Assembly: GCA_016783355.1 (NCBI GenBank)
Contig: JADHWR010000001.1
Location: forward strand, 6,072 to 70,071
DNA: 64,000 nt
Direction of reading: 5' to 3'
Source of the DNA: Candidatus Omnitrophota bacterium
Lineage (GTDB): Bacteria; Omnitrophota; Gorgyraeia; Gygaellales; JAHJCI01
Shown here: positions 4,580 to 64,000 of the stretch, one piece after another
How the letters are laid out: every line of letters starts with the position of its first letter
Numbering within the stretch: position 1 is the first letter of the stretch
The notes under the pieces: model-generated
What the model was told of the DNA's origin: nothing
Seen by the model: the letters and a program-made list of their open reading frames with translations, nothing else
Database searches by the model: none
Made by a program: the position numbers and the translations under genes

Positions 4580-7500
4580 CTAAGTTACCTTTTCCATCTG
4601 CGCCTCTCGATGTGCAATAAAGCCGGTTCCTGCAGGAATTAAATGTCCAACAATCACATTTTCCTTCAATCCATATAAAACATCCCGTGCACCACGAGAA
4701 GCAGCATCGGTCAAAACCCGTGTTGTCTCCTGGAAGCTTGCTGCAGAAATAAAGCTATCTGTGCTCAATGATGCCCTGGTAATACCTTGCAACTGTGGTG
4801 TGGCTGAAGCAGGAGTGCCGCCCTTTTTCATCACACGCTCATTCTCGGTTTTAAATCTCAATTTATCCACTAATTCTCCAGGTAAAAATTCTGTATCTCC
4901 AGAGTCTTCTATACGCACTTTCTTCAGAATCTGTCGAATAATCAATTCAACGTGCTTATCACTAATCTGCACCCCTTGTAAACGATAGACTTCCTGAATC
5001 TCATTCAAAAGATACTCTGCAAGTCTTTTGTCTCCACAAATACGCAAGATTTCCTGAAGCACAACTGGTCCATCTGTAAGCTGGTCGCCGGCGCTGACGC
5101 GGTCCCCTTTATAAACGTTGGGGTGCTTACCATGGGGCATAATATACTCACGCTCCATGCCTGTCGGTGAACGGACAATAATTATTCGTTCGCCTTTCTT
5201 GCCTTCTCCAAATTCTACAAATCCATCAATCTCACTAATTATTGCCGGATTCTTTGGTCGGCGTATCTCAAATAATTCGGCAACGCGCGGCAGACCTCCT
5301 GTAATATCATGGGTTTTGGCAATGATGCGTGGGGTCTTCGCTAAACAGGCTCCTGCATTAATCTGCTCGGTATCCTTAACTAAAACATGGGCGCCTACGG
5401 GGAGCGGATAAAGACTGAGCACATCTTCTTTCTCATCTAAAATAACAATCTGAGGATGATATTCTTGTTTATGCTCCATCACTACTCGCTCAGTAACCTT
5501 GGTTACAGGATTAAACTCATCCTCAATACTAACTCCTGGAATTAAATCCTCAAATCTAACCCGGCCAGCTACTTCTGTCAAAATCGGAGAGTTATAAGGA
5601 TCCCAATGGACAAAAGCCATTCCCTTCTCAGTCAAAGTCTTATCAGCAAAAGCAACCAGCCCTCCATAGGGTACGGTATAACGTTCAAGTTCCCGGCCTT
5701 CCTGATCATTAATACTAATTACGCCATTACGATTAAGCACAAGAAATTCTTTGCCCACCCTTACTATTTTTAAGTTATGGTAGGTTAATATGCCTTTGTT
5801 TCTTGATTTTATCGAAGAGCGCTCAATCACACGAGAAGCTGTTCCGCCAATATGAAATGTGCGCATAGTAAGTTGTGTGCCGGGTTCGCCGATACTCTGA
5901 GCAGCAATTATTCCTACTGCCTCGCCTAATTCAACCTGCTTTCCCCGGGCAAGGTCCCGGCCATAACAGGTGGCGCAAATCCCCCTTTCTGCCTCGCAGA
6001 TAAGAACACTGCGTATCCTTATCTTCTCAATACCTAAACGCTCAATAATATCTGCCTTCTCTTCAGTAATCTCTTTGCCTGCCTCAACAATAACCTCATC
6101 AGTAATAATATCAACAATGTTATCGAGGGCAGTCCTTCCCACGATACGCTCGCGAAGAGGTATAACCACCTCATCTCCTTCAATAAGTGCGCTAACTGTA
6201 ATTCCATTAAGTGTACCGCAATCCTTCCTGGTTACAATTATATCCTGAGCAACATCTACCAATCGGCGAGTAAGATATCCTGCATCAGCTGTCTTTAGGG
6301 CTGTATCAGCGAGTCCTTTTCTTGCGCCATGTGTGGAGATAAAATATTCAAGAACGGTTAAACCCTCACGAAAATTTGCTGTAATAGGAGTTTCGATAAT
6401 CTCGCCTGATGGTTTTGCCATCAATCCACGCATTCCGCAAAGCTGCCTCACCTGCAGGCGCGAACCTCTTGCACCAGAATCAGCCATCATAAAGATTGGG
6501 TTAAAGGGTGTCATTTGCGAAAAGAGATAGTCAGTAACCCTATCTGTAGCATGTGTCCAGATATCAACAACACGATTAGATTTTTCTCTCTCTGTAATTA
6601 TGCCGTCTTTATAAAGCGTATCTACTTTGTCAACCTCGTTCTGTGCCTTCTTTATAACCTCTGCTTTTTGTGAGGGAATATGCAAATCCCCAATGGCAAT
6701 CGTGATACCCCCTAAGGTGGCAAATTCAAAGCCTTGTTCTTTTATTTCATCTAACAACTGAATTGTTCGTGCGTGACCAAAGCGTTTGTAGCATTCATCG
6801 ATTATATCGGCAACCAAGAATCTATTTAATTCCCTATTTACAAATCCAAAACCCTCCGGCAGCACTTGATTGAAGATGATTCTTCCCACTGTTGTTGTAA
6901 TTAGCCCTGTTGAGTCTTTAGCCTTTCTCTCATCCAGATCATATACCTTATTGACTTTCGTCTTTATCAATTCATGTAGGTCAATTATCTTATCGTTGTA
7001 CGCAGAGAGTGCCGCCGCAGGCGTGCTAAAGATTAAATCCTTTATCTTGCCGGCAGAGCCTTGCTTGGTAAAATAATTGCAACCCAGAATGATATCCTGT
7101 GTAGGCGATGTAATCGGCCGGCCATTGGCAGGAGAAAACATATTATTAATCGAAAGCATTAAAAGCTTTGCCTCCATCTGTGATTCCAACGACAGGGGGA
7201 CATGCACAGCCATCTGGTCACCATCAAAATCAGCATTAAAAGCGGCACATACCAAGGGATGGATCTTGATTGCCTTGCCCTCAATAAGTCTTGGTTGAAA
7301 TGCCTGCATACTTAAACGATGCAAGGTTGGTGCGCGATTCAAAAGCACGGGATGGTCACTTACAACTTCCTCGAGAATATCCCAAACCTCAACCTTTCCC
7401 CGCTCAACCATTCGGCGTGCCCCCTTAATTGTATGAACAAAGCCTTTCTGGCATAACCTCTTAATAATAAATGGCTCAAATAACTCAACCGCCATCTGCT

Positions 7501-10500
7501 TGGGAAGACCGCACTCTTGCATTTTCAGTTTTGGCTCAACAACAATTACCGAACGACCAGAGTAATCTACACGTTTACCTAAAAGATTCTGCCTGAAACG
7601 ACCCTGCTTTCCTTTAAGCATATCCGCAAGGGATTTTAGGGGTCGATTATTCGCCGTCAAGACTGCGCGGCCATGTCTTCCGTTATCAAAAAGCGCATCC
7701 ACTGCCTCTTGAAGCATTCTTTTTTCATTGCGAATAATAATATCCGGAGAATTTAACTCAATCAGTTTTTTTAGACGGTTGTTGCGATTAATCACCTGAC
7801 GATATAAATCATTCAAATCAGAAGTAGCAAATCTACCGCCATCTAAAGGAACCAGAGGCCTTAGGTCTGGCGGTATAACAGGAAGAACCTCCAAAACCAT
7901 CCATTCAGGCTTGTTGCCTGACTTTTTATAATCCTCGACAAACTTAAGATTTTTTAATAACTTTCGACGAGAAAGATTATCTTTAGACTGAGCGAGGGTT
8001 TTTTTCATTCTGGCAATCAGCTCATCTAAATCTGCTTCCTTCAATAAATCCTGAATTGCCCCTGCTCCAATTTTAGAGACAAAACCTTTATGTTTTTGTC
8101 GTGCTTGTGTATTTTCCTCTTCTGGAAGAAGTTGGCCCCTTTTATACGGCGAATCGCCTGGCTCGCTCACAACGTATGCCTCATAATAAATTATCTTTTC
8201 CAACTCACGCAGCCCCAAACCCAATATGGCCGAAAGCCTGCCGGAGACAACCTTAAAAAACCAGACATGTGTTACGGGTGCGGCTAATTCTATCTGTCCC
8301 ATGCGCTGACGGCGCACCATCGAATGCGCCACGGTTACGCCGCAACGGTCACAGGTAATTCCCTTAAACTTTATACCCTTATATTTGCCGCAGTGACACT
8401 CCCAGTCCTTCGCTGGCCCAAAAATCCTTTCGCAAAAGAGTCCATCTTTTTCCGGCTTAAGCGTACGATAATTAATTGTTTCTGCCTTTCTCACCTCGCC
8501 GCTTGACCAGCTGCGAATAACCTGTGGCGAGGCGATCTTTATACCTAAACTTTCAAATTGATTTGGGTTCTCCTCCCTTAGCTCCTGCTTTTCTATACGA
8601 ATATCAAGACATAAAGCTTGTAATTCTTTCATCAATACATGAAATGACTCGGGAATTCCGGGAAAAATCCTTTGTTCTCCTTTGACAATTGCCTCGTAAA
8701 TTTTTGTCCGGCCGCTAACATCGTCGCTTTTCACGGTAAGCATCTCTTGTAAAATAAAGGCAGCGCCATAGGCCTCTAAAGCCCAAACCTCCATCTCTCC
8801 TAAGCGCTGACCCCCAAACTGTGCCTTTCCTCCTAAAGGCTGCTGAGTAACTAAAGAATAGGGGCCTATAGAGCGGGCATGAATCTTCTCCTCAACAAGA
8901 TGAATCAACTTCATCATATAAATATATCCCACAGAGATATTTTGGGCAAAGGGCTCGCCTGTATAGCCGTCAAAGAGTGTAATTTTACTATCCTCAGGTA
9001 GCCGTGCTTCTTTAAGCATTTGCCTTATTTCTTCCTCGCTTGCTCCATCAAATACAGGAGAGGCAACTTTTATACCCAGACTATGCGCTGCCCAACCAAG
9101 ATGAGTCTCTAAAATCTGGCCGACATTCATGCGCGAAGGAACGCCTAAAGGATTTAAAACAATCTCGACTGGTTCCCCCGATGGCAAAAAGGGCATATCT
9201 TCTTCTGGTAAAATTCTTGCAACTATCCCCTTATTGCCATGACGGCCGGATAACTTATCTCCCTCTTGAAGCCTGTGCTTTGTAGCAATATAGACGATAA
9301 CCTGCTTAAGAACACCGCTCGGTAATTCATCGCCCCGACGCACTGCTTCAATCTCCTGCTTCATCTGAATATCCAATGCCTTGATCTGTTCTACATAAGG
9401 CTGGTTTATCTGGTTTGTTTCAGGATACGTACTTAAATCTAAGTCTGTTAATTCCTCTCTATCTACTTTTAAAACGTCGCACAGCCGCCTCATTCTTTCT
9501 TTATTAAGGAATTCCCTCTCTTCCTTATAATATTGTTTTATCTCCTTAATTCTTTTCTGCTGGCGCAACTTCTCTTCTTTAGACTTCCTCCCTCGCTCTC
9601 GACGACTAAATTCATCAATATGCACGACGATACCTTCGATACCGGGCGGAACAACTAACGAGGTATCGCGCACATCTTCAGCTTTTTTACCAAATATTGC
9701 GCGCAAGAGTCTCTCTTCCGCAGAAAGCTCTGATTCAGTGGTCGGTGTAACCTTGCCAACAAGAATATCCCCTGGCTCAGCCCAGGCGCCAATGCGCACA
9801 ATACCATTTTCGCCAAGACTAAGCAATGCCTCTTCGCTAACATTAGGAATATCCCGCGTAATCTCCTCGTTGCCTAAGCGCGTCTCTGTGGCTTCGATTT
9901 CCAACTTCTCGATATGAATAGAAGTAAAGGCATCTTCCTTGACTATCTTTTCAGAAATCAAGATTGCATCTTCAAAATTGTATCCTCGCCAGGGCATAAA
10001 GGCCACCAATAGGTTTCTGCCCAAAGCAAGTTCTCCATCTTGGGTTGCTATCCCATCGGCAATGATCTGACCTTCTTCTACAAAATCCCCTAACAAAACC
10101 AGCGGTCTTTGATTTATGCAAGTATCGGCATTGGTGCGCAGGAATTTCTTCAATCGATAAGTCTTTTTTCCAATGATGATTGTGGAGGCATCAACAAAGG
10201 TTACCTTGCCGGCCTCTTCGGCAATCACAACTGCACCAGAATCCTCTGCTATCTTCCTTTCCATCATTGTTCCTACAAGAGGTGCCTGCGGATTAAGCAG
10301 TGGCACTGCTTGACGCTGCATATTGGCTCCCATCAATGCGCGATTGGCATCATCGTGCTCTAAAAAAGGAATTAAGGAAGCGGATATCGAAATCAATTGC
10401 TTACAAGACACATCCATAAACTCCACCTTTTTGGCCGCAAGCTTGGGAAAATCAGCTTTAAAACGACAAGATACATCCTTCTCTAAAAGATGACCCCCCT

Positions 10501-31006: not shown

Positions 31007-31071
31007 CCTCGACTTCGTCCCTCGACTTCGTCCCTCGACTTCGTCCCTCGACTTCGTCCCTCGACTTCGCT
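31007..31071. repeat. 13-bp tandem repeat x5 (cctcgacttcgtc)
   Basis: Four perfect copies plus one variant, read directly from the sequence. Confidence 0.9.
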
Positions 31072-31200
31072 CGGGACGACCCTGAGCTTGTCGAAGGGTC
31101 GCTCGGGACGACCCTGAGCTTGTCGAAGGGTCGCTCGGGACGACCCTGAGCTTGTTGTCGAAGGGTCGCTCAGTGTCAATCCTGAGCTTGTCGAACGGAT
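31072..31200. repeat. 32-bp tandem repeat x3 plus a partial copy (cgggacgaccctgagcttgtcgaagggtcgct); each unit has a GACCCT...AGGGTC hairpin
   Basis: Units lie at 31072, 31104 and 31136 (the third has a 3-bp tgt insertion). A partial copy follows as cctgagcttgtcgaacgg. Confidence 0.9.
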
Positions 31201-63302: not shown

Positions 63303-63371
63303 CAAAACCCCATCAGCAAAAACAAGTTCACTGAGCCACCCGCGACTCGAACGCGGCACACCCGCCTTAAA

Positions 63372-63697
63372 CATTTTTGTTAACTGTATGTCGCCATACA
63401 GATCAGACTATCCCATCCCCCTCACGCTTATCCTTAAAAAAGAAAGCGATGGGGGTCTCGATTATAGTCGTTGAACCTTCCCAGTACTTATTTGCTAAGA
63501 TAATTTCTGATTCAAATAAATGCCGGGCTTGGCTGCAGATTGTCTGCATTTAAGAATTTTTACCCCCGCCACAATACTTTGGCGGGTCGCCAATGCTTTG
63601 TGGCGACAGACATAAAGGGTATCTTAAAATACTCAGACTTTCCCGCAATTTACGAGATTCTCACTATTGATTTCTCAATAATGGCCCCTTTTTCGCG
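63372..63697 (-). ncRNA. Group I-like intron (no ORF), with a repeat module inserted at the P5 tip
   Basis: It starts after an exon U and ends in G. Hand-folded pairings are listed here:
- P1: GCCCU/GGGGC.
- P2: CAUUAUUGA-GAAA-UCAAUAGUG.
- P3: UCUCG/CGAGA, followed by J3/4 UAAAUU.
- P4: GCGGG/UCUGC, followed by J4/5 AAA.
- P5: GUCUG/CAGAC.
- The conserved AGCCAAGCC word.
- P6: CCCGG.../...CUGGG.
- P7: GACUAU/AUAGUC.
- P8: CCCCC.../...GGGGG.
- P9: UGUAUG-GCGA-CAUACA. Confidence 0.72.
63563..63607. repeat. Single inverted copy of the 46.6-kb double-hairpin repeat unit, embedded in the intron
   Basis: The plus strand reads ccccgccacaatactttggcgggtcgccaatgctttgtggcgac. This is the reverse complement of the gtcgccacaaagcgttggcgacccgccaaagtattatggcggg unit at 46696-46738. 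Confidence 0.85.
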
Positions 63698-64000
63698 AGG
63701 GCGGTGCTCTACCAGATGAGCTAGTGGCCCATTTCTATCTTAAATTTGTAATTATTGCCAAAGAACAAAATCTATATCTATTTCTGATAAGATTTTAATA
63801 ATAAATCTAAGATTTTTCTCTTTGAAATTTTTCTTTTCCAAATTCCATTCTTTCTGCTCGCATTTATATAAATTCTAGGCGAAAAATTTATCTCTTTAGC
63901 AAATCTTAATAAGTTTTCCCTTTTGGAGATTTCTATCTCAGTGCCCCTTTTATTAATTCTGCTCTTTATACCAAAACCATTTAATAAATCTTTTATCTGT

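Follow-up and report, generated by a model that had tools for sequence, protein, structure and literature searches.

We analysed a 64,000-nucleotide (nt) stretch of a Candidatus Omnitrophota genome (assembly GCA_016783355.1, contig JADHWR010000001.1, positions 6,072 to 70,071; hereafter the window), whose last kilobase holds, on the minus strand, a tRNA-Lys(UUU) gene whose exons of 33 nt (5′) and 40 nt (3′) are separated by a group I intron of 326 nt. Upstream of it and on the same strand lies a free-standing gene for a LAGLIDADG homing endonuclease, which begins 1 nt past the frr stop codon and ends 47 nt before the tRNA, while tRNA-Leu(UAG) and then tRNA-Gly(GCC) follow downstream. A preliminary description of this DNA, made from its letters without database searches, had placed two tRNA-Lys(UUU) halves 326 nt apart and had joined them into a 73-nt tRNA. 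The coordinates and the sequence are as it claimed, and ARAGORN reads the joined exons as a canonical 73-nt tRNA-Lys(ttt).

In its default mode, ARAGORN reports no tRNA at the split site. In its intron mode it proposes a 95-nt ‘tRNA-Val(gac)’ with a 306-nt intron, a call that is wrong, as intron-less orthologs confirm the junction placed by hand. The split tRNA-Lys represents a class of genes that standard annotation misses, and without it an annotation of this genome would seem to have no tRNA-Lys(UUU) at the locus.

As an unbiased anchor we took the upstream gene, frr, and searched it against one genome per species; the best ~30 matches are metagenome-assembled genomes of Candidatus Omnitrophota at 53–75% identity. 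Within this frr-anchored set, an uninterrupted tRNA-Lys(UUU) follows frr at a distance of 3–30 nt in 23 Omnitrophota species representatives, and some of the intron-less genes have a UUUUUAA loop. The two exons of the window match contiguous coordinates in these orthologs (e.g., 5565–5597 and 5598–5637 of locus L018), which fixes the exon boundary between CCCU and UUUAAGG on grounds beyond tRNA logic alone, and the predicted ligated tRNA differs from the genes of L018, L014 and L016 by only 2 nt. Given that the split gene occupies the syntenic tRNA-Lys(UUU) position of its intron-less relatives, it very likely functions and needs splicing to do so.

Family, fold and covariation of the intron

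A covariance-model scan, which the preliminary description had set as a check, identified the intervening sequence as a group I intron. Rfam family RF00028 (Intron_gpI) matches positions 63707–63384 of the minus strand at 88.1 bits (gathering score 50, E = 3.9e-21), and the match spans the full model (positions 1–253), stopping 12 nt before the 3′ splice site because the model does not include omega-G (Williams 2020). On L001, a metagenome contig that overlaps the window (see below), the score is 92.6 bits, and among the scanned relatives that were anchored on the homing endonuclease gene (HEG) it ranges from 57.7 to 92.6 bits, the lowest value belonging to the different, Lys.3Ug intron of L252. 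All of the elements named in the preliminary description (P1, P2 with its GAAA loop, P3, J3/4, P4, J4/5, P5, the AGCCAAGCC word, the long P6, P7, P8, and P9 with its GCGA loop) were found at the sequence given for them (Table 1). The 326-nt intron contains no meaningful open reading frame (ORF), and the fold of the whole intron has a z-score of −6.3 relative to shuffled sequence. A 51-nt hairpin inserted at the tip of P5b makes the intron longer than most; that of L185, the nearest relative found, measures 412 nt.

Table 1 Features of the split tRNA-Lys(UUU) locus, in window coordinates unless stated; pairing and compensatory changes refer to the alignment of 37 introns
Feature	Position	Strand	Details
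tRNA-Lys(UUU) 5′ exon, GGGCCACUAGCUCAUCUGGUAGAGCACCGCCCU	63730-63698	-	tRNA positions 1-33; ends with U33, the U-1 of the intron
Group I intron	63697-63372	-	326 nt; begins CGCGAAAAAGGGGCC, terminates UUAACAAAAAUG; omega-G is G63372
tRNA-Lys(UUU) 3′ exon, UUUAAGGCGGGUGUGCCGCGUUCGAGUCGCGGGUGGCUCA	63371-63332	-	tRNA positions 34-73; anticodon UUU first
P1, exon GCCCU / internal guide GGGGC	63702-63698 / 63688-63684	-	U33·G wobble at the 5′ splice site
P10, AAA / exon UUU	63691-63689 / 63371-63369	-	1-6 bp among homologues
P2 hairpin, AUUAUUGA/UCAAUAGU, GAAA tetraloop	63663-63682	-	two-sided changes at 8/8 pairs; 93.9% paired
P3 5′ strand UCUCG, then J3/4 UAAAUU	63653-63657	-	partner CGAGA at 63460-63456; 100% paired; 3/5 compensatory
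P4-P5 domain: P4 GCGGG/UCUGC, P5 GUCUG/CAGAC, J4/5 AAA	63535-63646	-	P4 nearly invariant
P5a UUUAAG/CUUAAA and P5b UACCC/GGGUA	within 63535-63646	-	P5a 6/6 compensatory; P5b 2/5 compensatory
51-nt expansion at P5b tip, long hairpin	63616-63566	-	alignment columns 108-158; this lineage only; z-score -5.9
P6 GCC/GGU, P6a CCCGG/CUGGG, distal P6b hairpin	63475-63533	-	P6 invariant; P6a 5/5 compensatory
Catalytic core, with P7 GACUAU (63469-63464) / AUAGUC (63411-63406)	63406-63469	-	P7 invariant in 37/37
Core: J7/3 AAU, P3′ CGAGA (63460-63456), P8 hairpin (63455-63417), J8/7 AUGGG		-	P8 5/5 compensatory
P9 hairpin CUGUAUG-GCGA-CAUACAG	63401-63384	-	5/7 compensatory; 99.6% paired
12-nt tail UUAACAAAAAUG after P9, closing in omega-G	63372-63401 region	-	...UAACA...UG conserved
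LAGLIDADG homing endonuclease gene, free-standing	63778-64623 (L001 7009-7854)	-	281 aa; runs off the window end
Endonuclease gene, part inside the window	63778-64000	-	C-terminal 73 codons and stop

Homologues were collected by scanning metagenome contigs with a conserved 20-mer from J6/7-P7-J7/3, and the endonuclease-anchored loci were added to them. We mapped 39 split tRNA-Lys homologues with introns of 231–412 nt, in all of which the 5′ exon ends in CU, the intron ends in G and the 3′ exon begins with UUUAA, and ARAGORN called 41 of 42 homologues ligated in silico as tRNA-Lys(ttt). A set of 37 non-redundant introns was then aligned with MAFFT and the hand-derived structure imposed on it, with P7 and P10 treated as pseudoknots. 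Paired cells make up 93.6% of this alignment, compared with 37–45% when the 3′ partners are slid by 1–3 columns; two-sided changes occur at 35 pairs, and none of 500 shuffles reached the observed values. Compensatory changes were seen in P2, P3, P5a, P5b, P6a, P8 and P9. The P3–P9 core, including the P3/P7 pseudoknot, is therefore kept by selection, and the column of the terminal G (omega-G) is invariant.

Since the variable length of its loop mis-registers P1 in the MAFFT alignment, P1 was re-scored sequence by sequence. The 73% pairing taken from the alignment is an artefact of this mis-registration; scored individually, P1 has 4–6 bp with a U33·G wobble in 37 of 37 homologues, and the internal guide covaries with tRNA position 30 (CCCU/GGGG vs. 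GCCU/GGGC). The U-1·G pair and the terminal G that the preliminary description had read from a single sequence are thus general among the relatives; in every one of the 39 loci the intron ends in G.

With the mechanism taken from established group I chemistry, the exon end GCCCU of the precursor would pair with the internal guide GGGGC to form P1, with the U33·G wobble at the splice site, and an external guanosine in P7 would attack after U33. The terminal G63372 would then occupy the guanosine site while P10 (AAA/UUU) aligns the 3′ exon, and exon ligation would yield the 73-nt tRNA-Lys(UUU). Self-splicing in vivo is expected by the same analogy. We put at roughly 90% the probability that this element is a Lys.2Ug-type group I intron, placed between U33 and U34 of the tRNA-Lys(UUU) downstream of frr, and that it splices. 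The 37-sequence alignment, with its exact splice sites and intron-less orthologs, provides a comparative dataset for this lineage.

Two points count against this assignment. P4, P6 and P7 are without variation in the covariation set and are therefore consistent with the fold but uninformative, and copies of tRNA-Lys(UUU) were judged at this locus alone. The second point would suit a pseudogene, that is, a decaying split gene whose intron no longer splices, with another part of the genome providing tRNA-Lys(UUU), and the lineage-specific 51-nt insert in P5b might be read the same way. We consider such decay very improbable, as the exons are so close to those of functional orthologs at the syntenic site, every element of the core agrees with its counterpart in relatives where compensatory evolution is at work, and the insert is a stable peripheral hairpin outside the core. 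A chance juxtaposition of two unrelated tRNA remnants near a group I-like sequence, an outcome that the preliminary description had named as a refutation, has next to no probability: the only point found in its favour is the missing ARAGORN default-mode call, and it is refuted by the ARAGORN call on the ligated exons, by the recurrence of the same split with identical junction rules in at least 39 loci, and by the 23 related genomes in which the halves are two parts of one intact orthologous gene.

The 20-mer used for collection (AAGGTTCARMGACTATAATC) proved too general as a probe for tRNA-Lys introns, since it returned 120+ metagenome and 32 viral stretches with only ~45 tRNA-Lys loci among them; most of the matches come from other group I introns that have this J6/7-P7-J7/3 sequence in common. 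Exact 20-mers of the form AAGGTTCA(A/G)(A/C)GACTATAATC occur in >100 metagenome stretches other than tRNA-Lys loci and in 32 viral contigs (L094–L245), which shows that this J6/7-P7-J7/3 core is common to a wider set of group I introns. The tRNA-Lys exons are absent from all viral contigs matched by the scan. One stretch, L125 (8992–9385), carries two copies of the 20-mer 374 nt apart.

The adjacent endonuclease gene and its relatives

The endonuclease gene was completed from L001, a contig of the ENA metagenome assembly ERZ24794679. This contig, reached via the neighbouring ClpP protein, agrees letter for letter with the final 2 kb of the window and continues beyond its end. The encoded protein matches Pfam PF14528 (E = 1.4e-9), and the gene has a GC content of 26–29% in flanks of ~42%. 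The single chain contains two LAGLIDADG motifs, AHFMFDG and FFDDEG, which, acidic residues included, are invariant in 17 homologues at 35–78% identity. A sequence search against solved structures returned no relative. The homologues are mostly from Omnitrophota, and in every Omnitrophota homologue for which context was retrieved the gene order is rpsB-tsf-(pyrH)-frr-endonuclease-tRNA-Lys with its intron.

Relatives of the endonuclease always flank tRNA-Lys(UUU), which is mostly intron-split in Omnitrophota and intron-less in bacteria of the candidate phyla radiation (CPR). At every HEG-anchored Omnitrophota locus the intron lies within ~100 nt. The endonuclease gene stands outside the tRNA gene at every locus examined, upstream of it in most Omnitrophota and downstream in L127, L251 and L252. 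The last two lie outside the frr context: in L251 the same intron type is present and the endonuclease gene starts 12 nt after the tRNA, and in L252 a different intron, inserted after U34 (Lys.3Ug), is followed downstream by a member of the endonuclease family. In the most distant homologues checked, from the CPR groups Paceibacterota and Zambryskibacteria, the gene lies 1–50 nt downstream of an uninterrupted tRNA-Lys(UUU) (L253, L254, L256), and these loci contradict the generalization that the endonuclease never occurs without the intron.

Anchoring on the intron instead of the endonuclease added many more loci with both elements, as well as at least ten with the intron only, in which the tRNA closely follows frr. 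In a tree of frr, empty, intron-only and endonuclease-plus-intron loci are interspersed, and the lineage of the window falls among empty ones. Between the close pair L008 and L152, the cassette is a clean ~900-nt indel that fills the spacer between frr and the tRNA.

At four loci a remnant of an intron-less tRNA-Lys is preserved between frr and the start codon of the endonuclease gene. The longest, in L105 (21–62), comprises positions 1–42 of the tRNA (42 nt) with an intact loop; L246 (2952–2996) retains positions 1–33 and a scarred loop (~33–44 nt), L004 (3940–3968) positions 1–29 (29 nt) and L011 (3915–3940) positions 1–26 (26 nt). No such remnant is present in the lineage of the window. These truncated remnants indicate that a resident gene without an intron received, beside it or within it, the endonuclease gene together with an intron-bearing copy of the tRNA, the insertion point of the cassette being ~10 nt 3′ of the intron insertion site.

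Several other features were noted at these loci. A motif, TTGTTCTTTG(G/A/T), at L001 7863–7873 (window 63759–63769, minus strand) is conserved 20–40 nt upstream of the tRNA in endonuclease-bearing loci and recurs at the intron-only locus L152, in the short spacer that separates frr from the tRNA; it could act as a promoter element of the tRNA or be what loss of the endonuclease gene left behind. In L008 (5219–5340), the last 16 nt of tRNA-Lys plus one base (GTCGCGGGTGGCTCAT) are repeated ~100 nt downstream of the gene, a pattern reminiscent of an att-type duplication on either side of a small insertion. Locus L012 has ~2.3 kb of extra DNA (5220–7530) between the otherwise adjacent tRNA-Lys and tRNA-Leu, within which a small GIY-YIG-domain ORF (7085–7378) is possibly a second mobile nuclease at the tRNA cluster. 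In two marine lineages, L246 (4459–6855) and L248 (4667–6604), Archease and the RNA ligase RtcB are encoded next after the split tRNA-Lys, and the RtcB of L246 (990 aa) has an intein. Elsewhere in the window, ARAGORN called an 86-nt ‘tRNA-Pro(cgg)’ on the plus strand (31068–31153), in a gap between two minus-strand ORFs. This call is probably spurious: up to E ≤ 1 no tRNA is matched by Rfam at this place, and the one hit, to Guanidine-II, stays below threshold (21 bits vs. 32).

Relation between the endonuclease and the intron

A free-standing endonuclease gene paired with an ORF-less intron is present at the locus and recurs in its relatives, an arrangement that resembles collaborative, or trans, homing. 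Our hypothesis is that the endonuclease has probably promoted, or still promotes, the spread of the endonuclease-plus-intron locus in Omnitrophota by double-strand-break repair. On this view, tRNA-Lys genes without an intron would be cut by the endonuclease, a carrier’s own gene would be immune thanks to its intron, and the two elements would spread jointly. The association of a family member with a second, different tRNA-Lys intron (Lys.3Ug, in L252) favours such a link. So do the closeness of the intron at every HEG-anchored Omnitrophota locus, the invariance of the catalytic motifs, the interspersion of locus states in the frr tree and the clean indel formed by the cassette. In its broadest form the proposal is that a LAGLIDADG family specific for tRNA-Lys(UUU) is teamed with ORF-less anticodon-loop group I introns, in Omnitrophota and at least two other lineages, and that the partners engage in collaborative homing. 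We advance this tentatively, at odds clearly short of even.

Some observations speak against endonuclease-driven spread. At least ten intron-bearing loci have no endonuclease gene, and the family members of CPR bacteria adjoin intron-less tRNA-Lys, so that the intron is unnecessary for coexistence. Hints on the target point in opposite directions: in a truncated intron-less tRNA-Lys copy the ancestral endonuclease cassette is inserted ~10 nt 3′ of the intron insertion site, whereas the CPR homologues coexist with intron-less tRNA-Lys.

The same observations sustain a serious rival, which we judge somewhat less likely than not, namely that the endonuclease and the intron each favour the conserved tRNA-Lys(UUU) gene and landed there independently, the endonuclease homing alone (intron-less homing) and taking no part in the mobility or protection of the intron. 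Besides the three CPR loci and the intron-only loci, the variable position of the endonuclease gene, upstream or downstream of the tRNA, agrees with separate arrivals. Against them stands the constancy of the association, as among the loci examined outside CPR the endonuclease gene is always found with an intron in the adjacent tRNA-Lys (~18 distinct upstream, 5 partial and 3 downstream cases), while neither element is present in most Omnitrophota species. The family also goes with two intron types that are unrelated to each other, Lys.2Ug and Lys.3Ug.

Fungal mitochondria have LAGLIDADG proteins that serve as maturases of group I introns, and the protein could instead be a maturase that acts in trans and that the intron requires for its folding and splicing. 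In favour of this reading, gene and tRNA are closely linked, and in L001 and L008 the first codon of the gene touches or overlaps the frr stop codon, which suggests translational coupling. A maturase role is nonetheless quite unlikely, because close relatives of the intron persist without the gene (e.g., L152 vs. L008) and because both catalytic LAGLIDADG motifs are invariant in their acidic residues, as fits a nuclease; the CPR homologues beside intron-less tRNAs argue in the same direction.

If endonuclease and intron do spread together as we propose, collaborative homing would here take place in a tRNA gene of a bacterial chromosome. The stages of the locus are still visible (empty, intron only, endonuclease plus intron, endonuclease only in CPR, and remnants of the disrupted resident gene), and together they form a natural allelic series in uncultured bacteria for the idea of collaborative homing. 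The moderate interest of the locus rests mainly on the endonuclease-intron pair and this series. In the searchable literature we found no description of a LAGLIDADG link to tRNA-Lys, nor of Omnitrophota (Omnitrophica) introns.

Comparison with known tRNA introns and homing systems

According to the preliminary description, it would be unusual for tRNA-Lys to be the host and for splicing to occur after U33, a view that is outdated on both counts. A scan of ~80,000 genomes by Williams found 5,292 split tRNA genes and raised the bacterial tRNA-intron types from the four classical ones (Leu.3Ug, Arg.5Ug, fMet.2Ug, Ile2.5Ug) to 21 (Williams 2020, bioRxiv 10.1101/2020.01.27.920355). The seed alignment of that preprint includes Dba165.Lys.2Ug, Mle24.Lys.3Ug and Mpe6.Lys.4Ug, and it reports position-2 introns in fMet, Met, Leu, Thr, Ile2 and Phe as well (bioRxiv 10.1101/2020.01.27.920355). 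As fMet.2Ug is one of the four classical types, splicing after U33 is itself classical, and the presence of Lys.2Ug in the seed alignment means that host and site had already been described; the intron reported here belongs to a known class.

Like Dba165.Lys.2Ug, the intron of the window has a tRNA-Lys UUU host, an insertion after loop position 2 (U33), a U-1 wobble in P1 and a terminal G. In contrast, Dba165 has extra helices of the P7.1/P7.2 type between P7 and P3′, which the window intron lacks. The two are 66% identical, compared with 65–74% for seeds from other tRNAs, although gap-tolerant global identity does not discriminate here, all seeds falling within 65–74%. Because of these additional helices, and because the similarity to Dba165 is no higher than to seeds from other tRNAs, the window intron may represent a separate lineage at the same site.

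With the classical introns of Azoarcus tRNA-Ile (Ile2.5Ug), cyanobacterial tRNA-Leu(UAA) (Leu.3Ug) and tRNA-fMet (fMet.2Ug), it shares the form of a small, ORF-less anticodon-loop ribozyme with P1–P9, a GAAA-capped P2, the GCC-AAG motif of P6 and a P1 that uses the anticodon-stem strand, and with fMet.2Ug also the insertion after U33. It differs from them in the host tRNA, in the sequence of J6/7-P7 (UCAACGACUAU here, GUAGAGACUA in the classical introns), in its length (326 nt vs. roughly 200–250 nt), and in a P5 with an added P5a/P5b arm and, in this lineage, the further 51-nt hairpin.

The known intron-encoded homing endonuclease of a bacterial tRNA intron also pairs an endonuclease with an anticodon-loop group I intron; the gene described here, unlike that one, lies outside the tRNA gene. 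Two phage systems exemplify collaborative homing: F-CphI and the psbA intron form one, in cyanophage S-PM2, and the other occurs in T-even-like phages. The review cited counts only two systems, both in phages, and collaborative homing has been proposed as a way in which mobile introns first come into being; T4 mobE with I-TevIII is the subject of PMC2790892. Compared with the phage systems, the Omnitrophota locus, a candidate for collaborative homing, lies on a bacterial chromosome and in a tRNA gene instead of a protein-coding gene, its enzyme is of the LAGLIDADG type, and endonuclease-only loci stand beside intron-less tRNA-Lys in CPR bacteria. In both settings, endonuclease-plus-intron, intron-only and empty alleles coexist among relatives.

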